Assembly: GCA_041640595.1 (NCBI GenBank)
Contig: JBEPZY010000005.1
Location: 64,001-128,000, forward strand
From: Gemmatales bacterium
GTDB lineage: Bacteria > Planctomycetota > Planctomycetia > Gemmatales > HRBIN36
Length of the DNA: 64,000 bases
Direction of reading: 5' to 3'
In this document: positions 7,853 to 46,489 of the stretch, piece after piece
How the letters are laid out: every line of letters starts with the position of its first letter
Numbering within the stretch: the first letter of the stretch is position 1
The notes under the pieces: generated by a model
The model's input: the letters and a program-made list of their open reading frames with translations, nothing else
What the model was told of the DNA's origin: nothing
The model's database searches: none
Translations under genes and position numbers: made by a program

Positions 7853-8099
7853 TCTGCTCTGGCAATTTCCAGCCGGTCTGCTAGGATACCGCCAGCAGCA
7901 AGCGACGGCCGACACGCTCACGGTCGCCATACTCGGCGGGGCGGATGACTTCCCGCCGGGCGACCGGCAACGGTCATCGGCAGTAACAACCATCCGCGAA
8001 AACCAGCCGGAGCACCCGCTCTGTGTGCCCGTACCGGAAACTGACCGGTGGAGCCAATCGAACTTCCGGACTATTTTCCGCGATTTACTGGAGACAACC

Positions 8100-31551: not shown

Positions 31552-33099
31552 TCAAGCCGCAGCACGCATGGGTTGTTCAGCGGTGGTAGAACGAGTTGCC
31601 GCAGCTGCGGGCGGCTGAGTTGCCGGGCTCGCTGCCGCCGACTCCAACCAGCGGGCAATGATCCGGGCAAGCAGGTCGGGATTTTGCCGCGCCAGTTCGG
31701 CAAGCCCTTCGGTCTGGGTCTGCGGTTGTGGCAGGATTTGAGCGGTGCGGAAACTGCGCAGCAGCAGCCAGGCGAAAGCCAGACCGGTCAGGGCAGCGAT
31801 AGCGAGTGCTGCCTGCCTGGCCAGTGCCAGATAGCGCTCCCATCTGGTGGCCTCCAACAGTTCCGTGTCCAGGGCGGAAGTATCGGGCGGCTGCAAACGC
31901 ACCTCGCTCACCTTGATTTCGTCGCGTCCGGATTTGAAGCCCACCGCCTGCTTGACAATTTCCTGCACATCGGCCAGCTGAATGGGCGGTTTGCCGCTCG
32001 CCTGCCCGGAAAGGTCCACCATGACGGCTACCGTCTGGCGTTCGATCTGCCCAGGTGCCTGAACGCGGGTGATTTCCGTCTTGGGCGGAGGATAGTACTC
32101 GGTCGTTTCGGTTTCCCGTTGCTCCGAGGAGGACTGTGTACCGCCTGTGCCAGCCCGACCGAGATTGCTGGTCGTTCCGGCCGGACCCCGACCTACACCG
32201 CTCGACCCACTGCTTTTCTCGTTGACCGTTTCCGACCTGCGAACCGGTTTCTGGTCGAGATTGTACGTTTCGGTTTTCTCGGTCACGGATTGAGTGTTGA
32301 AATCCACGGTAACCCGAACGATAGCCTTGCCGGGACCCAGAACAGCGGCGAGCATGCGCTCCGCTTCACTGGCCAGGTAAGCCTCGTATTCCCGCTTATG
32401 TTCCAGCACACTGGCGGTGAGCCCTGCGGTTCCGCCGGGTTCCGAAAGCAGTCGGCCCTGGCTATCTACGAGGGCGACGTTTTCCGGAGCCAACCCTTCC
32501 ACACTGCGGGAAACCAGTGCGGTAATAGCTGCGGCTGTGCTTCGCGGGAGCGTGTGTCCGGGCTTGAGTCGCAGCACGACACTGGCAGTCACCGGTTTGC
32601 GTTCCCGGACGAACGGAGTTGGTTCGGGCCGGCTGATATGCACTCGCGCGTAGGCCACCGGTTCCAGTTGCATGATGGTTCGCGCCAACTCCGTCTGCAA
32701 GGCTCGCGTGTAGTTGACCTGTTGCAGGAACGGTGTCAGGCCGAATGGAGTGCCATTGTCGAACAGATCGTCGAACGTTTTTCCACCCCGTGCCGGTAAG
32801 CCAGCTCGGGCCAGGTCCACCAGAGCCTGCTGGTGATAATTTACCGGCACCAGCACGGTCGTGCCCTGGTTCTCCAGACGATAGGGGATGTTCTGCGCCT
32901 GCAAACGTGCCGTGATCGCGCCGCTGTCTTCCAGGGACAGGCCACTATACAGAATGCGATACTCCGGTTGCATGGCCCAGTAAACGAGCGCAACCACGGC
33001 TAAAACGAACACACCGGCCAGCACGGCCAGCACAATGCGTCGGGCCACGCTCATGCCTTGCCACAACTGCACCAGATTGTCGCGGAGTTGAGCCCACAT
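31552..33099 (-). CDS. fliF: Flagellar M-ring protein FliF
   Basis: LYSGLS, YTRALQTELARTI, ARVHI, TASVVL, SVEGLAPENV, two TMs. Confidence 0.95.
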   Translation of the reverse strand: MWAQLRDNLVQLWQGMSVARRIVLAVLAGVFVLAVVALVYWAMQPEYRILYSGLSLEDSGAITARLQAQNIPYRLENQGTTVLVPVNYHQQALVDLARAGLPARGGKTFDDLFDNGTPFGLTPFLQQVNYTRALQTELARTIMQLEPVAYARVHISRPEPTPFVRERKPVTASVVLRLKPGHTLPRSTAAAITALVSRSVEGLAPENVALVDSQGRLLSEPGGTAGLTASVLEHKREYEAYLASEAERMLAAVLGPGKAIVRVTVDFNTQSVTEKTETYNLDQKPVRRSETVNEKSSGSSGVGRGPAGTTSNLGRAGTGGTQSSSEQRETETTEYYPPPKTEITRVQAPGQIERQTVAVMVDLSGQASGKPPIQLADVQEIVKQAVGFKSGRDEIKVSEVRLQPPDTSALDTELLEATRWERYLALARQAALAIAALTGLAFAWLLLRSFRTAQILPQPQTQTEGLAELARQNPDLLARIIARWLESAAASPATQPPAAAATRSTTAEQPMRAAA

Positions 33100-33188
33100 G
33101 GTGGACCGTTTCTGTGCAGGTACGCCCTGGTTCGCCCGGCGGCTTTCTCCCACCGATCAGGAACCTGCAATCTTACATGGCTGGCGGT

Positions 33189-33491
33189 TCAGACCTGCAT
33201 GCGCATGATTTCCTGATAGGCTTCGGTCAGACGGTTGCGGATTTCCAAAAGGAAGCGGAAAGTCAAATCAGCCTGGGCCAGCCGAAGCAGGACTTCGTGC
33301 AGATTGTCGGTTTGGCCGAGGGCGAGTGCCTCCACCGCCTGGTTGGCTTGGGCATGCGTTTGTCCCACCTGGTGGAGTAAATCCTGCACCAGCTGGGCAA
33401 ACGGCAACGGTGCCTGGCTTCTGGTGGGCGGTGCCGAGTCGGCTATCGGGATTGGCGTATAGCCGATTCCGCCAATGCCGCTGACCTGCAT
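33189..33491 (-). CDS. fliE: Flagellar hook-basal body protein FliE
   Basis: C-terminal EIRNRLTEAYQEIMRMQV. Confidence 0.95.
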   Translation of the reverse strand: MQVSGIGGIGYTPIPIADSAPPTRSQAPLPFAQLVQDLLHQVGQTHAQANQAVEALALGQTDNLHEVLLRLAQADLTFRFLLEIRNRLTEAYQEIMRMQV

Positions 33492-33639
33492 GCTTGTCTA
33501 TTTCCCTGGTTCGGCTCGACCGGTTTCGACCGCATCAGCCAGAGCCCGTCGGGCAGATGTCCCCGACAGTGCCAAGCAGCGCTGGCTTGTTCTCGGCGAT
33601 GGTGAATGCTGGTTGTGGGATGGCTCGTCACGGTCTGGC

Positions 33640-34065
33640 TTAGCCACGCAGCAACACAAACGCCTGCTCCATCATCTGCCGGAAGGTTTGCAGCACTTTC
33701 AAATTCGCTTCGTAAGCGCGGCTGGCCGTCAACAAGTTCACCATTTCCAGGGGCAAATTCACGTTGGGATACAGTACGTACCCGTCGGCATCCGCATCGG
33801 GATGGCCGGGTTGATAGACGCGAATGAAGTCGGAAGGATCGTCTTCGATGCCTGCCACCCGCACACCGTTCAGTTCGGGTTTGCCCAATCGGTTGCGGAG
33901 CACCGCTTCAAAAACGACGTCTTTCCGCCGATACGGTTGGCCGGTTACAGAACGGGTCGAAAAGGCATTGGCCAGGTTGTTGGCGATAACCTCCATGCGC
34001 AGCCGCTCGGCACTCAAGCCGCTGGCACTGATGCGGGTGATGGCGAAAATGTCCTCGAAACCCAT
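33640..34065 (-). CDS. flgC: Flagellar basal-body rod protein FlgC
   Basis: SASGLSAERLRMEVIANNLAN, PYRRK, PGHPDAD, PNVN, ASRAYEAN. Confidence 0.97.
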   Translation of the reverse strand: MGFEDIFAITRISASGLSAERLRMEVIANNLANAFSTRSVTGQPYRRKDVVFEAVLRNRLGKPELNGVRVAGIEDDPSDFIRVYQPGHPDADADGYVLYPNVNLPLEMVNLLTASRAYEANLKVLQTFRQMMEQAFVLLRG

Positions 34066-34292
34066 GGATTTTGCCCCGTGCTATGCTTGCCGCAGGTAAT
34101 ATGTTTCCGCGGAGCAGGCATCACCCAGGTTTGGTCGTTGTTTTGCCAAACCTATTATGCTCTCGGCGAGGATTGCTTTTCAGCGTGCCGGGCGACGGGT
34201 GCCGCTGCGAAAAGGCAAAATTTAGCTGGGCGTTCCCGAGGCCGACTCAGTTCCCATCGCAGCCGAGCCAGGCACTCGGAGTTGGGGCCGCG

Positions 34293-34643
34293 TTATCGGC
34301 CAGCGATAGCACTTCGCATTTCGCCGATCCGCAGCGCCAGAATCTGCACGTAAGTGTGATAAAGCAGGCTGTTTTTCGTCAGCAAGGAAAGTTCCTGGGA
34401 AAGGTCCACGTTGTTGCCATCGGCCCTGGCCGGGCTTTGCGGATCGGTTGTGATAATTGGCCGGGCATGGACGGCTGCTGTTCCCGACTTCAGTTGCCGT
34501 GCCAGTTCTTCCTCAAATCGCACAACCAGACGCTGGTAGCCAGGCGTGTTGACGTTGGCCACGTTCTGTGCAATGGCCCGATGACGCACGGCACAGGCGT
34601 CCAGCAATCGGTTCAGCAGGTCGAGTTGAGGAATATTGCTCAT
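34293..34643 (-). CDS. flgB: Flagellar basal-body rod protein FlgB
   Basis: IAQNVANVNTPGY and RADGNNVD motifs. Confidence 0.95.
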   Translation of the reverse strand: MSNIPQLDLLNRLLDACAVRHRAIAQNVANVNTPGYQRLVVRFEEELARQLKSGTAAVHARPIITTDPQSPARADGNNVDLSQELSLLTKNSLLYHTYVQILALRIGEMRSAIAGR

Positions 34644-34679
34644 CCTGTCGTCCGTGATTGACGCGATATAGGCAAGCTG

Positions 34680-34920
34680 TCCGGTGGTCATTGGCCAGTG
34701 ACCAGTGGCTGGCAAACGTTGACCGGTGGTCGGCGATCGGTGACCAGTAGCTCGCCGGCCCCCGACACCTGCTCACTGACCACCAGTCACGGGCCGCTGA
34801 CTACTTGCCGCTGGCCACCTGCTCCCCGGCCACCGATCACGGGTCGCTGGCCGCGAGTTACCAACCAGCGGTCACCGACCACCGACCGCTGGCCACTAGT
34901 CACCGGGCATTGTCGACCGA
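34680..34920. repeat. Heptamer tandem repeats in opposed orientations upstream of flgB
   Basis: CCAGTGA/CCAGTGG run followed by CCACT/CCGCTGG run. Confidence 0.75.
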
Positions 34921-35229
34921 TAAGGGCGTTGGCGCCACCGTGAGTCCCACCAATTCCGCCAGAATCTTCCGGCGTCAATGCCCTGGTCGGCGGAGATGCT
35001 CGATCCGGTGGCTGTCCAGACATCCCCAGGAATCCTGCCGCAAGTATCGGAAAGGCGACGGTGCGGCCTTTAGGGAATACGCCGGCTGTAACGACTGTGC
35101 CAACTCTGTCAGCAACCGACACCCCCCGCGATGAGTCCCATATTGTGGGCTCCGGTAGCAGAAGCTATGAGGTGCCGACTCTGTCAGCGACCGATACCTC
35201 CGCGATGAGTGCCCGTCAACTTGTTCGTC

Positions 35230-35900
35230 GCAAACAAGAGCGGGGAACGTCATCCCCCGTGGTCATGGTAACGTGACCGTCGGGGAGAAACGCATATCTG
35301 CAACAGCATGCGCACATGCAGCCAGGAGCGGCTGGCGTAAGCCAGCCGTGGTGCGTGAACGTACCCGTTTCACCAGCAGGAAACGCGCTTCGGCAGTGAG
35401 AGCCGTCCACACTATCAAGAGCGGCTGGCGTAAGCCAGCCGTGGGACGCGGGCGTGCTCAGTTGAGGAAAAACGCTTGCATCTGCAATTGCGTTACCGAA
35501 CCACGGCGGGCTGATGTCCGCCGCTCTTGGTCGGATGTGCGGACGTCGCCGAACAGTGCGCGATGTTTACCGCACGACGTTCGCACCACATACCACGGCG
35601 GGCTAACACTTGTCGCTCGTGATTCGGCGGTCGTGGTTCGCCGGACGTTATTCGCTGTGCACTGCCCGCGCGGCCGAATCGAACCACGGCGGGCTAACGC
35701 CCGCCGCTCTTGGTCGGATGTGCGGACGTCGCCGAACAGTGCGCGATGTTTACCGCACGACGTTCGCGCCACATACCACGGCGGGCCGACGCCCGCCGCT
35801 CTTGGTCGGATGTGCGGACGTGGCCGAACAGTGCGCGATGTTTACCGCACGACGTTCGCGCCACACACCACGGCGGGCTAACGCCCGCCGCTCTTGGCCT
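35230..35900. repeat. REP-like mosaic array 4
   Basis: About 7 hairpins; one spacer (GTCGGATGTGCGGACG...CCGCACGACGTTCGC) occurs three times; 35350-35420 is the reverse complement of the array-1 unit. Confidence 0.9.
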
Positions 35901-35996
35901 CGTTTGTTTCCTGGGGGAATCGCTTGGCCGCCTGTTCGCCGATGGCTCGTGCGTGAGCGGAGATGCTCGATGCAGCCCACAGCGAGGGCGCGGTGC

Positions 35997-37019
35997 CTAC
36001 TGCGAACCGCTACCTTCCGGACGGAAGAACGGGAAGATCCGTCGCGGTGGTGAAGAAGGTTGCGGTTGCGGCTGTGGTGCGGGTGGGTTGGGCGTCAAAG
36101 GAGCGATTACCGGGGATTCGTTTCCGCCAAGGCTTTGCGCCAGCGGCAGGAAGTTAATGCGTTGCGTCTGCCCTGCCTGGACAGTGATCTCATGTTCCGT
36201 GGTAATCGGCTGTCCGTTGGGTCCCGGCCAGGAAAGACGGATTTTGTACAGGTAAGTCTTGCCCGGCTGCAAAGGTGGCGACTGGAAACTTCGCACCGAA
36301 CCGGTTTGGCTCATGCGCTGATCTTCGATCCAGAGCGTGGCCTGCGGGGGAACTTCGATAATCAGGATCGCGGGAGCCGGTTTCTGCGGTACCACCGGAG
36401 TAACCTTGCTTCCAGCAGTGCCGGGCGGCGTGGTGCCAGCCGATGCCGAAGGCGGCGTTGCAGGTGGCTGAGGAGGTGAGTCAGCAGTTTGCACGGCAGG
36501 ACTGAGCGGACGTGGTGGCTGGCTGTTCGACGGTACTGGCGGAGTTGGTGTTGGGGCTACCGGCGGATTTACCGTTGTGTTCGGTGCTGGCTGGACGGGC
36601 ACGGGGATCGCTGGTTTGCTGGGTTCAATGGGCGTGGTGCCCGGGGAAGGGTTCGGGATGGTCGGTGGGGTAAGGGGCGGTGGAAACTCGATGGGTGAAT
36701 TGCCTGAACCTGCTGGCTTGTCCACGGTGGGTTTCGCCGGCGGGGTCGGGTCAGAATCCGTCGCTTCGGGTTTCTGTTTTTCGATTGGGCGGACGGTGAG
36801 TTGCTCGATGGCGGGAGTGGTCGGCTTGGCCGTCTCGGTCGGGACCGGTGCAGGAGTCGGCGGTTTGGTTGCCGATGGCGGAACTAGTTCCGGACCTGGT
36901 GGCGGTGGGGGTAACGGTGCCTGGCTCCAGCTCGCCAGCGCTGGGGTCAGGACGACCAGCATTGCCGCCGACCAGTTCCGCAAGCAGGTGAAAACTCGCC
37001 TGTGCGATTCCTTCCGCAT
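35997..37019 (-). CDS. Pro-rich exported protein with TIGR03000 (planctomycete) domain
   Basis: IEVPPQATLWIEDQ...TGSVRSFQSPPLQPGKTYLYKI signature after a long Pro-rich region. Confidence 0.88.
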   Translation of the reverse strand: MRKESHRRVFTCLRNWSAAMLVVLTPALASWSQAPLPPPPPGPELVPPSATKPPTPAPVPTETAKPTTPAIEQLTVRPIEKQKPEATDSDPTPPAKPTVDKPAGSGNSPIEFPPPLTPPTIPNPSPGTTPIEPSKPAIPVPVQPAPNTTVNPPVAPTPTPPVPSNSQPPRPLSPAVQTADSPPQPPATPPSASAGTTPPGTAGSKVTPVVPQKPAPAILIIEVPPQATLWIEDQRMSQTGSVRSFQSPPLQPGKTYLYKIRLSWPGPNGQPITTEHEITVQAGQTQRINFLPLAQSLGGNESPVIAPLTPNPPAPQPQPQPSSPPRRIFPFFRPEGSGSQ

Positions 37020-37544
37020 GATCAGCCTCCTTATCCGTGATATGTGGAGCGTCCATTCACCGGTTTACCGACAGGTGGTTTCCCTTCGGGCGACAAACGC
37101 CGCAGTTTCCGCAAGCCGGTCATTTGACTTCCCAAAGGGACAGACCGATTTTGCAGCGCCCGTTGGACGGGAAGCTTGCCTGGATATGCCGGGCATTGTC
37201 CAGAAAAACGCAGTTTTGCCAAGCCCAGTTTCTAGACGCATTGCCCGGACCGCGCGTGCCAGCGTCGGCGCGTCAGCGGCGTTCAGGCAGTCGTCAAAGC
37301 TCCAGGAGAAATTTCGCATCCGGCACAAGCCATTCGGCTGCGATGAGCAGAAAGCGCATCGAGAGTTGTCACGTTTGGCGCCCACCGCGCGTTTAAACAG
37401 TGCAGGTGACTGGACAATTTCTCCCGGGCAACCGAAACAGGAGCATACCAGCTTGTACCGCGCTAACGCCCTGACGAACCATCACGGCGGGACGAAGAGA
37501 GGTATTTCAGATACAATCACCATCAACAGCAGGGTGGTGCCAGC

Positions 37545-38915
37545 ATGGCCAAACGAAAACGCACAGAGTTCTACCGACCGCACCTGACTGCCACAGTTCG
37601 TCGGCAGGCGAAACCGTATGCTCCGGTTCGCTCATGGCTGAAGCGGTTGCAGCAGCTGAACTGTTTGTGGCAAAGCGGTTGGCCGGGACAGGAATTGTCA
37701 TCGGACATGGCTTTCGCGGTATCGGCTGGAAATCTTGCACCGCGCGAGTGTTACCGGTTTCTTGCCTGCCTGGGGGCACTGCGACGCACACGGTTGATGG
37801 AGTTTCTGCCGGCACAAAGGCGCGCGGAAATGCGAACACCCTTTTCCGAGTCGGCGTGCGACATTGCAACGGCAGCTGCTCCCAGAAGCGTCGTGCCGAT
37901 TCTGGAAGAGCCGGCGCCGTTTGTTCCTCAACGTTCCAGCTGGTTCGGGCTGGCCTGCCAATATGCGCAGCTGTTGGGCTGGGCAGAACGCTTTTACCGC
38001 CAGTTCGGACTGATTTTGGTCAGCAAAGGTCTCGGAATGTTTGATGCGGGAAAATGGTGGCAGCAGGCCGAAAAACTGGTGGCCGCAACCGAGTTTGTGG
38101 ACTTGCCAGAATGCTCCGACCGAACAATGCAACAACTGACCAGACGCGTTCGCCGGCTTTGGGACGAACTGGATAGAGCCGATTTGTTTGTTGCTCTGGC
38201 AAACCTGACGACCTTTTTCAGCGAACCAGCCGACTGGGAAAGGGTCCGCGTCGTAGCAGGAGTATCGCTCTCGGCTGACGAAGTGTCGCAACAATTGGAC
38301 GCATTGCAATCACGGCTGGCCGAAGTTCACAGCTGGCTCCGCGAACATCCGGAACCGTTTCTGCTTATTGACGCCTATATTCAAGCGGTGGCGGCAGGCT
38401 TTCGCAAGGATTTGCGCCGCTACGGGGATTTGTATTTGACCGCCACGAAATACGCGGCCATGCTCGATGCACTCGAAATAGCCGAAGGCGTTGCCCCGAT
38501 GTTCCGCAAAGCCGCGCGAGATCTGCAAGCCGAACTCGCATGCCTGCGGCAGGACGACGTGAGCCAGTGGTATTATCCGCGCTCGGAAATTCTGCCACCG
38601 CTTCTGGCCGCGGCGAGCGGCACGGCAGCTCCGGCGCGGATTCTGCGCTGGGAGGCTCCGGATAAACGCTATCGGGCAGCGATGCTGATTCGCGGCAACG
38701 GTGTGGTGCTGCGGTTTTTCACGCGCCGGGGCACCACGGCAAACTTCCTGGAAGGCGAACAGGTTTACCTGGCTGGTGTACCTGCCACGATTGATGAAGA
38801 CGGTTGGGCGATCATCCCTCTGGAAGAATTGCTCCAGTCGGAAGAAGACCTGTATCTGGAAGTTGGCAAGCAGCGTGTTCGCTGGCGCCCTTTGCAGCAA
38901 CGCACGCCCAACTGA
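37545..38915 (+). CDS. Hypothetical protein (helical core, LAAAS linker, C-terminal beta domain); partner of the Lon-CARF gene
   Basis: 456-aa ORF co-oriented 79 bp upstream of the Lon-CARF gene; start uncertain. Confidence 0.7.
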   Translation: MAKRKRTEFYRPHLTATVRRQAKPYAPVRSWLKRLQQLNCLWQSGWPGQELSSDMAFAVSAGNLAPRECYRFLACLGALRRTRLMEFLPAQRRAEMRTPFSESACDIATAAAPRSVVPILEEPAPFVPQRSSWFGLACQYAQLLGWAERFYRQFGLILVSKGLGMFDAGKWWQQAEKLVAATEFVDLPECSDRTMQQLTRRVRRLWDELDRADLFVALANLTTFFSEPADWERVRVVAGVSLSADEVSQQLDALQSRLAEVHSWLREHPEPFLLIDAYIQAVAAGFRKDLRRYGDLYLTATKYAAMLDALEIAEGVAPMFRKAARDLQAELACLRQDDVSQWYYPRSEILPPLLAAASGTAAPARILRWEAPDKRYRAAMLIRGNGVVLRFFTRRGTTANFLEGEQVYLAGVPATIDEDGWAIIPLEELLQSEEDLYLEVGKQRVRWRPLQQRTPN

Positions 38916-38994
38916 CCGACCCGGCCGCTGGCATTCGCTCCGCTGCTCCGGCAGACTGCTACCGCAGCACGGCAAGCGTCGGGAGAGCACGGCC

Positions 38995-40323
38995 ATGCCT
39001 TTAGACCCCCAGCGCTTGTTGGAGCTATTCCAGAAAACGCACGAAGAGCTGTTGCCCCTGGAATGTTGGGACCTGTACGAATATCTCGGCAATTTCATAC
39101 CGCTGTGGTTTCGTCCGGAGGTAGTGCAGCGCGTGGAAGAGGAGACAACGGTTCGTTTCGAGAAACCGCAATTGCCGCAGGATCGGGGATCGTGCTGGAT
39201 CATTTTTGCGCTGGGCTTAGCTTCGCAGTATCCGATGCTGAAGCCGGCTTTCGTCTTGCCGCTGCAATGGCAATGCCAGCCGGAACATGACCGCCGTCTG
39301 CCCGCCAGGTTGAAAGAGTTGGCGGATCGGGTTCGCCGGGCACTCAACCAGGCTTACCGCGACGAAGAATACCTGCGCTGGCGACTTTACATGCATCCCA
39401 ATTTCGCTATTTCCGAGACAACGCCGGATTTCAGCGGGCTCGATGAACAGCTCCGATTCGAATCCGGCTGGTTAGCTCTGGCAGGAGGCCTGTATTTAGC
39501 CCGGCATAACGGCCAGCCGAGCGAATACGTTTGGGCATCGGCTCGCTGGGATGAAGAAAAAGGTATCCTTCGCGTCGGGCATTTAGTTGAGAAACTGGAG
39601 CTGGCCCAGGAATACGGTGTCCGACAGTTTTACATTCCGGATGAACAAATCAACGAGGTGCCGGAACTGTTCCAGGGTATGGTCAAGCCGATTCGGCAAG
39701 GGACGAACCGGTTGCAAGAGGTGCTGGATAACTATGTCTGTGCCCTGGACGTAAGGCCCGCCTGTCCTCCCAGTAACGAAGAGAGCTTTCAGCGTTGCCG
39801 CGATTGGTATCTGCGCCAGCCAAGCCCGGACCTCCGCTATTACTGCACCTGTCTGCTCCCCTACCTGTTGCCGCGACTTCAGCACCAGCGGCGATCCGAT
39901 TGCCAACCGGAAGTGCTGGTGACTGTCTTGAGCCATAGCTGGAACCTGATCCCGCTGATCGCCCACACCTTCGAGGTCAAGCGGTGCGTTGTCCTGGTCA
40001 CCGCTGGTGATGAAAGAACGCACCATTACAGCGAACCAGTACGGCAGTTTCTGAATGCGTTCGGGCGGCGCGTCGAACTGATAGAATGTGAGTTTTACGA
40101 GGAGCGGATGGAAGAAAACTTTGGCGCTCTCGAAATCTGGGAACACTACCGTCAGCGACCCGAGAAAATCCTGGTGGACATGACGCCGGGTAAGAAGCTG
40201 ATGACTCTGCACTTGTACAGGTCGGCCCCTCGAGGTTGCTGGCTGGTGTACGTCAACACCGAGCAACGCCAGAACCGTCCGGTTCCTGGCTCGGAAAAAC
40301 TGGTTTGCTGGCAGCGCGACTAG
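38995..40323 (+). CDS. Lon-type (S16) protease domain fused to C-terminal CARF domain
   Basis: Ser (FESGWLALA, nt 39463) and Lys (VGHLVEKLELA, nt 39592) 43 residues apart; CARF-type motifs VLVTVLSHS, VVLVT, VDMTPGKKLM, LVYV; GGGAGAG RBS. Confidence 0.8.
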   Translation: MPLDPQRLLELFQKTHEELLPLECWDLYEYLGNFIPLWFRPEVVQRVEEETTVRFEKPQLPQDRGSCWIIFALGLASQYPMLKPAFVLPLQWQCQPEHDRRLPARLKELADRVRRALNQAYRDEEYLRWRLYMHPNFAISETTPDFSGLDEQLRFESGWLALAGGLYLARHNGQPSEYVWASARWDEEKGILRVGHLVEKLELAQEYGVRQFYIPDEQINEVPELFQGMVKPIRQGTNRLQEVLDNYVCALDVRPACPPSNEESFQRCRDWYLRQPSPDLRYYCTCLLPYLLPRLQHQRRSDCQPEVLVTVLSHSWNLIPLIAHTFEVKRCVVLVTAGDERTHHYSEPVRQFLNAFGRRVELIECEFYEERMEENFGALEIWEHYRQRPEKILVDMTPGKKLMTLHLYRSAPRGCWLVYVNTEQRQNRPVPGSEKLVCWQRD

Positions 40324-40709
40324 CCGGGGCGAGAAAGACGCAGGGCTTTCAGGCGACTTATGTCGGCTTCCGTCGTAGCTGTAGCAATGCCTGACCGCCA
40401 CTACCAGCGGGCTTTCAGGCAACATAGGTTGGCTTTCGTCTCTGGTGGCAGGTTTCGCCGCGCTGTGGTTTTCCAGGGGTGTGCGGATCGTCGAGAGGAT
40501 TTTCTCATCTCCCGCCGGGAACGCTGACGAGGCACAGTTTGCTGCAATGTCGCAAGAGCGGCAGAGTTCGGGGAAAACTGCGGTTGCGATAAACCGGTGC
40601 GTAGCTATAATCCGTGCCCATGGCCCTGGGTCTGCTATAGCACACATGGACGGCCAGCGTTGGGCCAGAGGTCTTCTGGAAGGCAGGGCAGACATCTGGA
40701 CGGCTCAAT

Positions 40710-42116
40710 ATGGATAAGGCACGGGCAGGCGGATTCTGCGGCGCCTTAGCGACCGCGGCATGTTTACTCCTGGCGGCTGAATGGAAAGTCAGCCTGCAGT
40801 GGTCGAGCGGGCAGGAGTTGCTCTATCGCGGCGAGATACACGAACTGGCCAGCGGTCGCGGGGTGCAATTCCGCAAGGAGTACGCCCTGGAAATTCGCGC
40901 TTTGGCAATAGAAGAGCGAGGCGATGAAGTAGCCGTTGCTTTCTTGACCACCATCCGGCCGAAAAACGCCCCTGCCACCAGCGGCACTGGAACGGTGCGG
41001 TTAGAATTGGCCTGGGTGAATCGTCGCGGCGAAATTTTTGCACCGAATCGCACGCCCCCCGTGCTTTCCCTGGATGCTCCCACGACCTGGGAATGTGGGT
41101 TTGTCGTGCGCTTACCCGGAAACGTTTTGCAAGACGGACAGAGCTGGCGTCACCAGGAACCGGGCCAGCCTGCCGAGGAATGGCGGGTCGTGGGGAGTGA
41201 AACGATTGCCGGCACCGCATGCCCGAAACTGTTGCGCGTGCAGAAGAGCGAAGATTGGGAACGGCCACGCGCGGATCGTCGAGCCTGGTATCGCCGCGAA
41301 GTTTTATGGCTGGAACCGCGCCTGGGAGTAGCTCAACGAGTGGAGCGGGAAATTGCCCGCCGTGAACCTGCCCAGACGCAAGCCACCGGCAGCATCCTGA
41401 CGCGGTACGAACTGGTCAGCAATTTTCGTTACGAGCCACGCTTGCTGGAAGATTGCCGCCGAGAGATTCGCCTGGCGGTGCAGCTACAGGATCAGCTCCG
41501 CGACTTACTTACCCCAGGGCGCAAAACCACGCCGGAAGATTTCCTTCAACTGGCTCGCCGGGTCGAGCAAATTCCAGCTACACCGACCACGCCTTATCGA
41601 GTCGCTCTGGAGCGTCTGGCATTAACCGCACAGGCAGCGGCTCGGGGCGAAGTGACACCGGTATCCGTTCAGGAAAACACCCCGGCTCTGGAAGTAGGCA
41701 AGCCTGCCCCCGACTTCCTGGTGCCCGATTGGCGCAAAGGGCAGCAAGTATCATTGCGGCAATTTCGCGGACGACCGGCGGTGCTGTTGTTTCTGCATCC
41801 CCGCTCCCCACTGAGTGGCGAAATTTTGCTGCACCTGCAACGCCTGGTCCAGCAAAATGCCGATTGGGAAGTTCAACCGGTGGCTCTGTTCATTCACGAA
41901 GACCGCGAGGCCGTGGGTGAGTTACTTGCCCGTCGGGATTGGAAATATCCTGTTCTGATTGGCTCGGCCTTACGAGCGAGTTACCAGATTGATGCCACCC
42001 CGCGGCTCGTTGTTCTCGATGGCCAGGGAGTGGTGCAGGGTATCTACACCGGCTGGGGTCCGGAAATTCCGCAGCAGCTGCTGCGCGATCTTCGCCGCGT
42101 CGCAGAGCCAAAGTAG
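40710..42116 (+). CDS. Exported protein with C-terminal redoxin/TlpA-like domain lacking CxxC
   Basis: VGKPAPDF...VSLRQFRGRPAVLLF, YQIDATPRLVVLDGQGVV; the active-site position reads HPRSPLS. Confidence 0.8.
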   Translation: MDKARAGGFCGALATAACLLLAAEWKVSLQWSSGQELLYRGEIHELASGRGVQFRKEYALEIRALAIEERGDEVAVAFLTTIRPKNAPATSGTGTVRLELAWVNRRGEIFAPNRTPPVLSLDAPTTWECGFVVRLPGNVLQDGQSWRHQEPGQPAEEWRVVGSETIAGTACPKLLRVQKSEDWERPRADRRAWYRREVLWLEPRLGVAQRVEREIARREPAQTQATGSILTRYELVSNFRYEPRLLEDCRREIRLAVQLQDQLRDLLTPGRKTTPEDFLQLARRVEQIPATPTTPYRVALERLALTAQAAARGEVTPVSVQENTPALEVGKPAPDFLVPDWRKGQQVSLRQFRGRPAVLLFLHPRSPLSGEILLHLQRLVQQNADWEVQPVALFIHEDREAVGELLARRDWKYPVLIGSALRASYQIDATPRLVVLDGQGVVQGIYTGWGPEIPQQLLRDLRRVAEPK

Positions 42117-42312
42117 CCTGCCCTCGCCCACGGACGCCTCGGTGCTCACCGAATAATCGGCAAAAGCGTTCGATTTTCGCTTGCTGTCCTGGCTACCCCA
42201 GCGGGGTTGGGCGTGAATGCCCTTGCAATTTCCGGGAACCACCCGATAGTATCGAACAGAAGGACTATGGCAGCCCAACCTGCTGGCCACGAATAAGAGG
42301 ACAGGAATCCTT

Positions 42313-42804
42313 ATGCTGGCGATGCCTTACCGGATTCAGGAGAGCACCCGTCGCTGTGCCCGAACCGGTCGTGAATTGCAGCCGGGAGAAATCTGTTATA
42401 GCGTTCTTTATGAACGGGACGGTGATTTTGTCCGCGAAGATTATTCGCCGGAGGCGTGGCAAGGTCCGCCGAACGGAGCGTTTTGTTTCTGGCGTGGCCG
42501 GGTGCCTCCCCGTGACGGACCGCGTCGGATTCGCTATCAGGACGATGCCTTGTGGGATTGCTTCCTGCAATTGCAGCACCGCACCGAGCCGAACGCTTTG
42601 CAAATGCGTTATGTGCTGGCCTTGCTTCTGCTGCGACGGCGAAGATTCCGCCTGGAAGCGGTGGATTGGCGCGACGGCGTCGAGATACTCCGCCTGCGAT
42701 GTTCCCGCTCCGGCCACGATTTCGAGGTGATCAACCCTGGCATCTCCGAAGCTGACCTGCAACAATTACAGCAGCAAATCCAGTCTCTCCTGGAGCTAGC
42801 CTGA
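42313..42804 (+). CDS. Conserved hypothetical protein
   Basis: Compact ORF with CARTG, REDYS, RYVLALLLLRRR; 6 bp from the next ORF's earliest start. Confidence 0.7.
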   Translation: MLAMPYRIQESTRRCARTGRELQPGEICYSVLYERDGDFVREDYSPEAWQGPPNGAFCFWRGRVPPRDGPRRIRYQDDALWDCFLQLQHRTEPNALQMRYVLALLLLRRRRFRLEAVDWRDGVEILRLRCSRSGHDFEVINPGISEADLQQLQQQIQSLLELA

Positions 42805-42873
42805 TCTTCCATGCTGACGCCAACACGGTGGAATTGCCGACGCCCGTCACTGCCCAGGGCCTGGCCTGGCCGT

Positions 42874-43743
42874 ATGCCGACCGGGTTCGGGTTGATGCTC
42901 GCACTGGTACTGTTGGCCGGTTGCAGTTCCTGGAGCGGACACCGTGAACCGCCACCTCCCTGGGGCAATGTCCGTCCCGGTGCTGAACAGATTGTCGCTT
43001 ACCTGGACGGCAATGCCCGCCGCATTCAGTCCTTGCGAGTGGAAGACCTGGACGTTACCGTGCAGTACGGCAACCAGCGATTCGGGGCCAGCGGCATGCT
43101 CGCGTACCAGAAACCGCGTAATTTCCGGCTCATTGCTTATGCCGGTTTGCAGGATCAGGCCGACATCGGTTCCAACGACCGCGAATTCTGGTTCTGGTTC
43201 CGCCAGGATAAGAACAACGCCCTGTATCGTTGCAGTTACGAGGACCTGCCCCAGGTGCGGAGCTTGCGCATCCCCGTTCATCCCGATTGGCTCGCCCAGG
43301 CACTGTGCGTACAGGAAATCGGCCCGGCCAATCAGTACCGCATCCAGGAAAATGGCGACTACGTGTATCTGACCACCCAGATTACCTCGCCGCAAGGCCA
43401 GCCGCTCGTCAAGACCCTCAAAGTGGCAATTCGCGGCGCCCAATCCGGTCGCATTGTCAGCATGAGTTTGCGAACTTTACAGGGGGCGGAAGTCTGGTCG
43501 GCGGACATCACCGAATATCATCACCAGCTCCAAGGCTACGTCGTGCCTCGCAAAATTCAGCTTCGTTGTCCGTCAGAAAAGTTGGAGGTCGCCCTGAAAC
43601 TGGATCGTGTTCAGGTGAACGTACTCCAGCCCGGCAATACTGGCGACATGTTTGTTCGCCCACCTAAGCCCGGCGTGCAGGAGATCGATCTGGCACGCGG
43701 GCCAGCCGCCACCCCAACCGGACTGCGCCCTGGTGGTGGATGA
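42874..43743 (+). CDS. Lipoprotein, LolA/DUF4292-like beta fold
   Basis: Lipobox LLAGC; YQKPRNFRL, DIGSNDREFWFW; alternative start 42811. Confidence 0.7.
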   Translation: MPTGFGLMLALVLLAGCSSWSGHREPPPPWGNVRPGAEQIVAYLDGNARRIQSLRVEDLDVTVQYGNQRFGASGMLAYQKPRNFRLIAYAGLQDQADIGSNDREFWFWFRQDKNNALYRCSYEDLPQVRSLRIPVHPDWLAQALCVQEIGPANQYRIQENGDYVYLTTQITSPQGQPLVKTLKVAIRGAQSGRIVSMSLRTLQGAEVWSADITEYHHQLQGYVVPRKIQLRCPSEKLEVALKLDRVQVNVLQPGNTGDMFVRPPKPGVQEIDLARGPAATPTGLRPGGG

Positions 43744-43782
43744 ACTTAGCTCGTGTTTGAAACGAAGCGGATGTTTAGATGC

Positions 43783-44778
43783 TTAGCGGCTAATGCGCAG
43801 TTGGGGCGAGCGCAGTAAGCTTTCCACCTCCGCAGGGGTTACCCATGCAAAGTCCCCTGGAATACTGTGCTTGAGTGCGCTGATCGCCACACCCCAATCC
43901 AGACCCTTCTGCACATCGCCATCTAATAATCCGTGGATCAAGCCCGCCGCAAAAGCATCTCCCGCACCTAAACGATCTACAATCTCGACTTCATAAGTGC
44001 GGGTTTGATAGAGCTTACCACCGGCATAAGCAATGGCCGTCCAGCTATTGCGCCACACCAGGGGATTTTCACGCAAGGTGATCGCTACCACCTGCAGATT
44101 GGGATACGTCTCGGCAATGCGTCGCGCTACCGTAGCGTAATCGGTGCCCTCGATCCGCAGAACTTTATTCGCGTCTTCTTCGGTGGTGACCAGCACCTGG
44201 GCCTGTTGTACAAAGCCGTGCATCCAGCGATGGGCTTCTTCCGCGCTCCAGAGTTTAGCGCGATAATTGAGGTCTATACTCACCGGAACGTTGGCCTGTC
44301 GAGCGGCGGTGATGGCTTCGCGAGTGGTTTCGGCAGCAGTGGGGCTTAGTGCCGGGGTGATGCCGGTCACATGGAACCAGCTTGCCTCACGGAAGATTTT
44401 TTCCCACGGCACCATGCCCGGACGAATGTTAGCAATCGCCGAGCCTTTGCGATCATAAACGACGCTGGAAGCTCGCGGCGCCGCTCCGAATTCCAGAAAG
44501 TAGAGACCCACCCGGTCTTCGTTCGTCCACAATATATAGTCCGTGCCGACGCCAGTTTCCTGAACGTGATGCACTAATAATCGGCCCAGGGGATTATCAG
44601 TAAGGCGGGAAACCCAGTAGGCCAATCGCCCCAGGCGTACTAAGGCGACCGCTGTGTTGAGTTCAGCCCCGCCTACCTTGATCTCGAAAGTTCGCGCCTG
44701 CTCCAGACGATGAAAAGCTGGCGGACTAAGTCGCAACATCGCCTCGCCAAAGGTGATCACCGATTTAGTCATAGGCAA
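43783..44778 (-). CDS. kdgK: PfkB-family sugar kinase, 2-keto-3-deoxygluconate kinase-like
   Basis: FGEAMLRL, GGAELN, DLNYRAKLW, VDRLGAGDAF; adjacent to eda. Confidence 0.85.
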   Translation of the reverse strand: MPMTKSVITFGEAMLRLSPPAFHRLEQARTFEIKVGGAELNTAVALVRLGRLAYWVSRLTDNPLGRLLVHHVQETGVGTDYILWTNEDRVGLYFLEFGAAPRASSVVYDRKGSAIANIRPGMVPWEKIFREASWFHVTGITPALSPTAAETTREAITAARQANVPVSIDLNYRAKLWSAEEAHRWMHGFVQQAQVLVTTEEDANKVLRIEGTDYATVARRIAETYPNLQVVAITLRENPLVWRNSWTAIAYAGGKLYQTRTYEVEIVDRLGAGDAFAAGLIHGLLDGDVQKGLDWGVAISALKHSIPGDFAWVTPAEVESLLRSPQLRISR

Positions 44779-44903
44779 TTTCCTTTATCGCCTTGCGCGG
44801 CCCACAGAGAGAATTATTGCCGGACGCTCAGACCTTATTGCCACTAAGACTCCGGCTATATATCAAGGTGCCTGAATTGAGCGGTGTTCCCGGCGGATAG
44901 CGT

Positions 44904-45563
44904 TCAAGACGAAGGGGAGCCAGCAGCGTGCTGGCGAACCAGTCCGACATACTGACGGGCCAGTTCACTGATGCGGCTGTAATTGCGTTCCGCTACGGCG
45001 CGCGGCTCCACCAGCTGAGCACCGATACCGAGACAGGATGCGCCAGCTTTCAGAAAATCCCCGACGGTTTGCAGGTTGACGCCTCCTGTCGGCATCAGGC
45101 GAATGTGCGGGAGTGGCGCTTTTAGTGCTCGAATATAAGCCGGCCCGCCAACCTCGGCAGGAAATATCTTGACTATATCCGCACCGAGTTCCCAGGCGTA
45201 AACCACTTCCGTGGGTGTGAATGCTCCTGGAATAACTACTTTCGAGTAACGCTTGCACATTTGGATAACCTCGGCATTGGTGTTAGGCGCCACGATAAAC
45301 TCTGCTCCGGCCAGTATCGCTAACCGGGCCGTCTCCGCGTCTAATACCGTGCCAGCTCCCAGCACTATATCCTGTCCCAGTTCGGCGGCGATTTGCTCTA
45401 ATACTCGAATAGCGTTGGGAACCGTAAAGGTGACCTCGATAGCGCGGATACCACCATCGAACAGAGCGCGGGCAACCTGCACCAGTTCGGCACTGCTCGG
45501 CGAACGAACGATAGCCACAATCTTCGTTTCCAGGAGCGTCTGTAATGTTTGCTGCGACGACAT
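44904..45563 (-). CDS. eda: KDPG/KHG aldolase
   Basis: IEVT, GAGTVL, PGAFTPTE, VKIFPA, MPTGGV. Confidence 0.92.
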   Translation of the reverse strand: MSSQQTLQTLLETKIVAIVRSPSSAELVQVARALFDGGIRAIEVTFTVPNAIRVLEQIAAELGQDIVLGAGTVLDAETARLAILAGAEFIVAPNTNAEVIQMCKRYSKVVIPGAFTPTEVVYAWELGADIVKIFPAEVGGPAYIRALKAPLPHIRLMPTGGVNLQTVGDFLKAGASCLGIGAQLVEPRAVAERNYSRISELARQYVGLVRQHAAGSPSS

Positions 45564-45670
45564 CCGCGAGGCTCCACAGTTCGGATTAATGCTTAGAGTC
45601 CGGCAACGTCGGGCGGTTGATAAGTGTACTTGATAGTCACAGACGTCGCTGCCATGACTAAGTATCGGCA

Positions 45671-46489
45671 CTAAGTCGGGCTGGGCGACCCGGAGGCACT
45701 AAGCGTGGGTAAAGCGATTTTTTTATTTTTGCGCAGGCCGAGCAGATCGCCGAGCTTTCGCCCCAACCACATTAAGGGATCGTAATAAGCATCCACCACT
45801 CGCTCTTTGAGCGGAATTATGCCGTTATCGGTAATGTGGATTTCTTCCGGGCAAACTTCCGTACAGCACTTGGTGATGTTGCATAGACCTATATTCAGCA
45901 CGTCCTTAAGCAGGGGCAGACGATCCACGGTATCAAGGGGATGCATTTCCAGACTGGCCACGCGGATCATAAAGCGTGGGCCACCGAAAATTTCCGGTGC
46001 TTCTTTCATCTGGTGATCGCGGAGGACGTGGCAAACATTCTGGCACAGGAAACACTCGATGCACTTGCGAAACTCCTGCACGCGGTCCACTTCTTCCTGA
46101 GCCATGCGCCAGGTGCCATCGGGAAAGTCCGGCGGTCGTGGACGAAACGGCGGAATCATCTTGTTGATGCGGTAGTTCCAGGAAACATCGGTAACCAGGT
46201 CTTTGATGATCGGGAAAGCCCGCATGGGTTCGATAGTTACTGGACCGGGCGGGAGGGTGTCCATACGGGTCATGCACATCAGTCGCGGTTTGCCATTGAC
46301 TTCGGCGGAACAAGAACCGCATTTACCGGCTTTGCAATTCCAGCGACAGGCCAGGTCGGGAGCTTGCGTGGCCTGGATTTGATGCACCACATCCAGCACG
46401 ACCATGCCTTCGCTGACCTCGGCCTGATATTCGCGGAACTCTCCACCGCTTTTGTCACCACGCCAGATACGAAAAATTGTCGTTCCCAT
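45671..46489 (-). CDS. sdhB: Succinate dehydrogenase/fumarate reductase Fe-S subunit
   Basis: CKAGKCGSC, CIECFLCQNVC, CNITKCCTEVCP. Confidence 0.93.
   Translation of the reverse strand: MGTTIFRIWRGDKSGGEFREYQAEVSEGMVVLDVVHQIQATQAPDLACRWNCKAGKCGSCSAEVNGKPRLMCMTRMDTLPPGPVTIEPMRAFPIIKDLVTDVSWNYRINKMIPPFRPRPPDFPDGTWRMAQEEVDRVQEFRKCIECFLCQNVCHVLRDHQMKEAPEIFGGPRFMIRVASLEMHPLDTVDRLPLLKDVLNIGLCNITKCCTEVCPEEIHITDNGIIPLKERVVDAYYDPLMWLGRKLGDLLGLRKNKKIALPTLSASGSPSPT

Follow-up and report, generated by a model that had tools for sequence, protein, structure and literature searches.

We analysed a 64,000-nucleotide stretch of a Gemmatales bacterium genome (contig JBEPZY010000005.1, positions 64,001 to 128,000; hereafter the window) and found that a gene at 38995..40323 encodes a protein, P0001, in which a Lon-type proteolytic domain is followed by a CARF domain. 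P0001 is a new member of the known and catalogued, but uncharacterised, CARF_m2 CARF-Lon family, and both its identity and its membership are secure. As for its function, we regard it as rather probable that P0001 is a site-specific Lon-type protease gated by cyclic oligoadenylate (cOA), with the product of the gene directly upstream, P0002, as its most likely substrate, in a logic like that of CalpL and CalpT. The gene and the parts of its product are listed below, all on the plus strand; conservation counts here and later refer to 154 aligned sequences (the query, the first ten matches and the listed cluster representatives).

38995..40323, plus strand: Lon-CARF gene, product P0001, 442 aa plus stop (open reading frame (ORF); PADLOC PDLC01981).
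38995..39162, plus strand: N-terminal helical segment of P0001, residues 1-56 (helices 5-12, 21-38 and 41-51 by DSSP on the AlphaFold2 model).
39163..39756, plus strand: Lon-type proteolytic domain, residues 57-254 (VIA-align, Foldseek and a profile search of the PDB).
39463..39465, plus strand: codon of Ser157, putative nucleophile (153/154 family sequences; the remaining one has a gap).
39592..39594, plus strand: codon of Lys200, putative general base (154/154 family sequences).
39778..40320, plus strand: CARF domain, residues 262-442 (fold match to 8jh1_A, PADLOC CARF models and TIGR02710).
40177..40197, plus strand: CARF motif D395-M-T-P-G-K-K401 (D395 in 150, T397 in 135, G399 in 149 and K401 in 132 of the 154).

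Membership in the family is carried by the PADLOC model PDLC01981, 'CARF_m2--CARF_LON' (PADLOC-DB 2.0), which matches residues 4-441 of P0001 over profile positions 2-408 of 408 (E 7.2e-115, 382.7 bits). P0001 shares with this family the Lon-then-CARF order, the size and, in its relatives, an association with type III CRISPR systems. Nothing defining sets it apart; what differs is that the window copy lies away from cas genes, has a partner gene and lacks a sigma-like gene. The family is large: an exhaustive hidden Markov model (HMM) search gathered 940 cluster representatives at E<=1e-3, of which 399 reached E<=1e-30, and their length is almost always 440-480 aa. Within the phylum the family is sparse, being found in 7 of 401 sampled genomes, the source genome included, with four matches spanning most of the profile. 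A narrower set of 61 close relatives held Lon-CARF in eight genomes, among them all three of the same genus. The CARF_m2 CARF-Lon clade reportedly originates in Makarova et al. 2020 NAR 48:8828. A 2022 review has, in its available text, a section on 'CARF-Lon effectors' that presents them as bioinformatically predicted and only speculates on their function, citing Makarova et al. 2020 (PMC9704534). A preliminary description of this DNA, made from its letters alone, had put the gene forward as part of an undescribed system. That proposal falls with the full-length PADLOC match and with this section of the review: the architecture is already catalogued, since PADLOC-DB holds a full-length model of it.

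An open stretch of reading frame +1 covers window positions 38701 to 40323, and we chose the ATG at 38995 as the start because the homologues in our alignment, A1, begin at the same Met; one homologue, P0003, is 98% identical to P0001. An AlphaFold2 model built from an 11-sequence alignment was of high confidence (mean predicted local distance difference test (pLDDT) 90.1, predicted template modelling score 0.79) and divides P0001 into three parts, namely a short helical N-terminus, the Lon-type proteolytic domain and the C-terminal CARF domain.

The proteolytic domain is recognised by fold, by profile and by its conserved residues. In VIA-align, residues 57-254 matched many Lon proteolytic domains at Z 14-16.4, with chain 6on2_D at Z 16.4 (root-mean-square deviation (rmsd) 2.9 Å, 167 aligned residues) and human LONP1 and E. 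coli Lon at Z 15-16, while Foldseek placed the domain with Lon at E 1e-7 to 1e-6. A P0001 profile searched against PDB sequences retrieved the Lon chain 8dvh_A (E 1.1e-4) and A. fulgidus Lon (E ~5e-3). In the profile alignment to A. fulgidus Lon chain 1z0c_A, Ser157 stands opposite a Ser and Lys200 opposite the Lys of 'QKIEAA'; we take these two residues of 1z0c_A to be the catalytic pair of that protease, and Ser157 is presumably the catalytic Ser of P0001. The spacing of 43 residues between Ser and Lys, already pointed out in the preliminary description, is borne out by Ser157 and Lys200, and the strings VWASARW, GILRVG, KLELAQEYG and VDMTPGKKLM on which that description drew all occur in the translation. 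The spacing is more than chance, because the Ser is present in 153/154 and the Lys in 154/154 family sequences. Likewise the absence of an AAA+ module holds: no AAA+ family was found in P0001 at E<=10 in Pfam, and the model leaves only the helical N-terminus, the Lon proteolytic domain and the CARF domain. P0001 thus resembles LonA and LonB in the fold of the proteolytic domain and in the positions of the dyad, but differs from them in having 442 aa without an AAA+ module or a Lon N-domain, and in the residues around Ser157, which read S-G-W; the NCBIfam LonB model matched P0001 at only E 0.24.

RadA and BrxL carry inactive Lon-like domains. These domains also match the fold of P0001, at Z 14-15, and Pfam Lon_C gave no match to P0001. 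Such results would fit a protein in which the Lon-like domain serves as a scaffold and has no catalytic role, like those of RadA and BrxL, so that P0001 would be a mere binder or sponge of cOA. We consider this highly improbable: an inactive domain is disfavoured because the dyad is invariant across the family, and the Ser and Lys align to those of archaeal Lon proteolytic domains.

The C-terminal part is a single CARF domain. Residues 262-442 superimpose on the CARF domain of T. thermophilus Csm6 with cyclic tetra-adenylate (cA4; chain 8jh1_A) at Z 16.5, with an rmsd of 2.5 Å over 168 aligned residues. PADLOC CARF models matched P0001 at E 7.5e-11 to 1e-6, the NCBIfam model TIGR02710 for CRISPR-associated CARF proteins at E 1.3e-5, below its cut-off, and the P0001 profile found the PDB entries of Can2 (E 2.4e-3) and Csm6 (E 1.3e-2). 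Pfam on its own would have missed P0001, giving only CARF_Card1 at E 0.052. No SAVED domain was detected in P0001 at E<=10 in Pfam, and its last 181 residues align with a single CARF domain. An earlier reading of the sequence had a C-terminal CARF domain of about 140 residues with a D-x-T-x-G-x-K motif; the fold and the motif stand, and the length is corrected to about 180 residues. Although the CARF domain of Csm6 is the closest structural match, and those of Cam1 and Can2 also match, P0001 departs from Csm6/Csx1, Can2/Card1 and Cam1, whose effectors are HEPN or PD-D/ExK nucleases or membrane domains: it pairs its CARF domain with a protease and carries that domain at the C-terminus.

A close parallel is the system of CalpL, CalpT and CalpS (Rouillon et al., 2023), a Lon-SAVED protease, an anti-sigma factor and an extracytoplasmic function (ECF)-like sigma factor, respectively, as given in the available text of the preprint (2021 bioRxiv) and of reviews. 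P0001 and CalpL share an N-terminal Lon-type protease, a C-terminal cyclic-nucleotide sensor and the lack of an AAA+ module, as far as the available portions of these sources describe CalpL. This removes the novelty that had been seen in the effector-first order of P0001, since CalpL likewise has its Lon domain N-terminal and its sensor C-terminal (PMC9704534 and the CalpL preprint, accessible sections). Indeed, the preprint says, in the portion available, that CalpL was 'originally termed Lon-CARF' until its sensor was recognised as SAVED (2021 bioRxiv). The two systems also have in common an adjacent partner gene, a sigma-like gene in many of the Lon-CARF loci and, in the logic that we propose, a single signal-triggered cut that would release a factor. 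In contrast, the sensor of P0001 is one CARF domain of about 180 aa, whereas that of CalpL is SAVED, with two fused CARF-like domains; the partner combines a helical part with a beta domain whose fold matches no known one, and gave no CalpT match in Foldseek or VIA-align; and the window locus lacks a sigma gene, while a paralogous locus encodes a Sigma70_r2 protein. CalpL chains were absent from the 20 PDB sequence matches at E<=10 and from the listed fold matches. Because its sensor is CARF and not SAVED and its partner is apparently unrelated, P0001 does not belong to the CalpL family.

With respect to the source of a signal, no cas gene was found in the part of the window that we examined, which covered the ORFs of 34000-46000, with the four nearest neighbours scanned for families. 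All cas10 matches of the source genome (G000; 95% complete, 42 contigs) lie on contigs other than that of the window, and P0001 must therefore act in trans. The genome holds three type III loci:

Contig C8: III-B locus with Cmr1, a 971-aa Cas10b, Cmr3, Cmr4 and Cmr6, adjoining I-B genes.
Contig C3: III-D locus with an 816-aa Cas10, Csx10, Csm2 and Csm3.
Contig C23, a short contig: III-A locus with a 781-aa Cas10a, Csm2 and Csm3.

The GGDD motif marks the cyclase site of Cas10, and it is present in all three proteins, at positions 730 (III-B), 568 (III-D) and 594 (III-A). The absence of cas genes near P0001 and its action in trans, both anticipated from the sequence, are thus upheld, whereas an unknown signal source, which had also been suggested, is not: the search of the genome for cas10 yielded these three candidates, and cas-linked relatives are common. 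To collect related loci, a pattern scan with alignment A1 was run on one genome per species and gave 17 loci, all in metagenome-assembled genomes of Planctomycetota; an earlier contig scan with the single protein P0001 had found no relative. One locus (L023) was dropped as a near-copy of another (L020), leaving 16. When their neighbourhoods were inspected with Pfam, type III cas genes (Cas10/Cmr2, Cmr3, Cmr5 and RAMPs) lay within ~6 kb of the Lon-CARF gene in 8 of the 16 (L017, L020, L022, L024, L026, L027, L028 and L030); three of the eight loci without cas genes (L014, L019 and L021) are cut by contig ends near the gene. The link to CRISPR is also favoured by the 61 close relatives, where seven of the 8 carriers of Lon-CARF, compared with 13 of the 53 genomes lacking it, have a Cas10 palm match; as related genomes are not independent samples, this is an indication only.

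Further genes of the source genome may belong to cOA pathways. Beside the III-B operon lies a truncated-looking Csx1, a 131-aa ORF (C8:30570-30746; L032 4355-4747) whose matches to Csx1/Csm6 CARF-HEPN models are confined to the first ~59 positions of these models. Other candidates are a Card1-type CARF match in a 500-aa frame (C1:13619-13978), a fourth, weak Cas10-palm match in a 630-aa frame (C1:21603-22100), a SAVED-domain match in a 189-aa frame (C6:78404-78760) and a sub-threshold CARF match in a 421-aa frame (C20:2809-3117).

The second gene of the proposed module lies 79 bp upstream of Lon-CARF on the same strand:

37545..38915, plus strand: partner gene, product P0002, 456 aa plus stop, putative substrate or adaptor.
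38640..38894, plus strand: C-terminal beta domain of the partner, residues 366-450 (strands 367-450 in the model).
38601..38618, plus strand: Ala-rich linker LLAAAS, residues 353-358, candidate cleavage site (in a stretch of pLDDT <50; motif in both partner subfamilies).

That the two genes form a unit, as had been suggested, gained support from the related loci: by tblastn, relatives of P0002 or of P0014, the partner in a paralogous locus of the same genome, immediately precede Lon-CARF in 10 of the 16, as they do in the window and in the paralogous locus itself. The upstream side of one locus (L030) was not visible. The same adjacency of partner and Lon-CARF occurs in three further genomes (G404, G449 and G442), and seven of the 8 genomes with Lon-CARF, but none of the 53 others, gave a match to the partner family. 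The partners fall into two subfamilies that differ in their helical N-terminal parts and have in common a C-terminal beta domain of ~90 residues; P0002 and P0014 align in BLASTP over this domain only (E 4e-9 over 105 residues). The model of P0002 (pLDDT 71) is helical as far as about residue 315; there follow a linker of low confidence (pLDDT <50 at 318-340 and 350-365) and the beta domain at 366-450, in which W369, P372, G441 and W447 are invariant in alignment A2. In each subfamily the invariant Trp of the beta domain is preceded, at a distance of some 10-15 residues, by an Ala/Gly-rich motif, which reads LLAAAS in P0002 and elsewhere ELAAAE, ALAAAA, VAAAG or ARAGQ. According to the available part of the CalpL preprint, the P1 pocket of CalpL accepts only small side chains (2021 bioRxiv). 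By analogy with that pocket, we propose LLAAAS as the candidate cut site of Lon-CARF in P0002. In a metagenomic representative of 853 aa, P0038, a P0014-like N-terminal part (E 5e-22) and an entire Lon-CARF form a single polypeptide.

P0002 itself has no family in Pfam, NCBIfam or PADLOC, its model has no PDB match at E<=0.001 in Foldseek, and the ESM Atlas gave no usable match. Its best wide VIA-align scores, up to Z 6.1, were to generic beta-sandwich folds and helical bundles, and none reached Z 8, which does not by itself make the fold new. Prediction of a P0001-P0002 complex from alignments A1 and A2 scored 0.19 and 0.00, where the mark was 0.32, a 'no answer' that counts neither for nor against binding.

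In the scheme that we infer for cOA binding, activation, cleavage of P0002, the cut site and a transcriptional output, the type III complexes encoded on other contigs would make cOA upon detecting foreign RNA, and the C-terminal CARF domain of the soluble, AAA-less P0001 would sense it. Binding of the ligand, probably across a CARF dimer, would turn on the Ser157/Lys200 protease, which would make a specific cut and cause no bulk degradation. P0002 would bind to the protease by the conserved beta domain at its C-terminus and be cut in the disordered LLAAAS at 353-358, and the cleavage would free its helical N-terminal part. Fuller modules include a divergent sigma-70-like protein, so that their output would probably be transcriptional, as with CalpL, CalpT and CalpS; the window copy would then be a pared-down pair of genes that lacks a sigma gene of its own.

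Several observations weigh against this scheme. Five related loci (L014, L015, L016, L019 and L020) have no partner upstream by tblastn, and three of them, L014-L016, are the closest orthologues of the window locus and have other genes at that position. P0002-like genes occur on contigs other than that of Lon-CARF in two same-genus genomes (G401 and G402), and the source genome itself has an orphan P0002 paralogue with no Lon-CARF nearby (C2:151633-153042, minus strand; L031 8619-10073; 29% identity over 499 aa, E 4e-48). The fused P0038 may be an artefact of assembly or gene calling rather than a true fusion. Foldseek and VIA-align revealed no resemblance of P0002 to CalpT or to other proteins of solved fold. 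The window locus lacks a sigma-like gene, the P0016 tblastn and sigma HMM searches matching only the paralogous C1 locus in the source genome. One carrier of Lon-CARF (G402, 93% complete) has no Cas10 match. Finally, our literature searches returned no experimental or biochemical study of the CARF-Lon family.

Since L014-L016 are partnerless, P0002-like genes are found unlinked and the C2 paralogue is an orphan, linkage to the partner is not obligatory. The three closest orthologues without an adjacent partner and the unlinked P0002-like genes speak for another arrangement, in which P0001 is still a cOA-activated protease but cleaves other proteins of host or phage, perhaps many of them, with an abortive-infection-type outcome, P0002 being an unrelated neighbour, a regulator or an inhibitor. 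Promiscuous proteolysis has been raised as a possible outcome of CARF-Lon activity, as the accessible text of the 2022 review has it (PMC9704534). We think this arrangement unlikely, although it deserves some weight, as the partner adjoins Lon-CARF in 10 of the 16 loci, those of distant family members included, the partner family co-occurs with it in 7/8 genomes against 0/53, and P0038 offers one fused form. In addition, the Lon-type CRISPR protease that has been characterised cuts at a specific site, as stated in the parts available of the review and the CalpL preprint (PMC9704534; 2021 bioRxiv). P0002 as the substrate of a cOA-gated P0001 therefore remains the reading that we prefer.

Two observations on the partner family are recorded separately. 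The neighbours of the C2 orphan include a weak S1/P1-nuclease-like ORF, a cysteine desulfurase and a sigma-54 gene. A 714-aa ORF in L028 was considered as a further fusion and rejected, for the partner frame stops at 7947 and the length of the ORF comes from the Lon-CARF frame running on upstream.

A separate matter is whether the window copy is coupled to CRISPR at all. Downstream of Lon-CARF, the window shares with its closest orthologues (L014-L016) genes for an AhpC/TSA-like protein, two ORFs without a family, a PfkB kinase, a KDPG aldolase and succinate dehydrogenase subunits. These neighbours are 67-92% identical, whereas the Lon-CARF proteins are only ~50-51% identical, and Lon-CARF hence evolves much faster than the genes beside it. 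The synteny with L014 and L016 stops exactly at the upstream edge of Lon-CARF, where P0002 sits in the window. Housekeeping genes in shared downstream order with L014 and L016, the presence of Lon-CARF in 3/3 same-genus genomes, the lack of cas genes in the part of the window examined and the carrier G402 without a Cas10 match would all suit a vertically inherited, stand-alone sensor-protease that is tuned to a different nucleotide signal or takes part in ordinary regulated proteolysis. We judge this distinctly improbable. The ligand-side CARF residues are kept as in cas-linked members, the same genome contains three type III loci with GGDD, Cas10 accompanies Lon-CARF in 7/8 carrier genomes, and the fast rate implied by ~51% identity against 67-92% for the flanking genes suits a gene in conflict. 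Gating of P0001 by cOA from the type III complexes of its own genome is the more probable reading.

The fuller form of the module is found in the same genome. On contig C1 (438020-442640, minus strand; L013 8018-12640) lie, in order, five genes encoding P0016, P0017, P0014, P0015 and P0018. P0015 is a Lon-CARF paralogue, 31% identical to P0001, P0016 is a sigma-70-like protein (Sigma70_r2 at 34.4 bits, above cut-off), and P0017 and P0018 belong to no known family. The same gene order recurs in bacterium HR36 (L029). P0016-like genes are located upstream in nine related loci by tblastn, and Sigma70_r2 scored above the Pfam cut-off in L020 (24.9 bits) and just below it in L022, L029, L019 and L024. 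The sigma HMM used on the source genome was built from four sigma-like proteins of P0002-type loci. It is conceivable, though we hold it doubtful, that Lon-CARF, the partner and the divergent sigma-70-like protein make up a second, independently assembled pathway from protease to transcription under type III CRISPR control, with CARF in place of SAVED and an anti-sigma-like partner unrelated to CalpT, and that one copy in this genus shed both its cas linkage and its sigma gene. If so, a single cOA signal would drive two protease branches, on the window contig (C5) and on C1, and up to three partners (P0002, the C2 orphan and P0014).

As a genome annotation the gene is unsurprising, since catalogues of defence genes already recognise its family. 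What the locus offers is a compact, two-gene test case for a predicted class of type III effectors for which we found no experimental work in the literature searched. It provides a high-confidence model, clear Ser/Lys mutants, a candidate substrate and a candidate cleavage linker, and the same genome adds three possible signal sources and the fuller paralogous module. If cOA-triggered cleavage of the partner is true, the Calp-type logic in which a protease releases a regulator would extend from SAVED to CARF sensors, and a new family of partners would be defined.

Lastly, we looked at the surroundings of the two genes. An Rfam scan of 33000-42000 found no family, and promoter and terminator scans of 36900-40800 gave scores not above those of shuffled sequences. 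The gene downstream of Lon-CARF (window 40710-42116) encodes a 468-aa protein with a C-terminal AhpC/TSA or redoxin domain (residues 329-448) and a long N-terminal part without a family; it has probably been kept beside Lon-CARF in L014 and L016 by vertical synteny. On the other side, at window 35500-35897, there is a tandem repeat of 92 bp in 4.3 copies with 75% matches, and the long ORFs that run through it on both strands look spurious.

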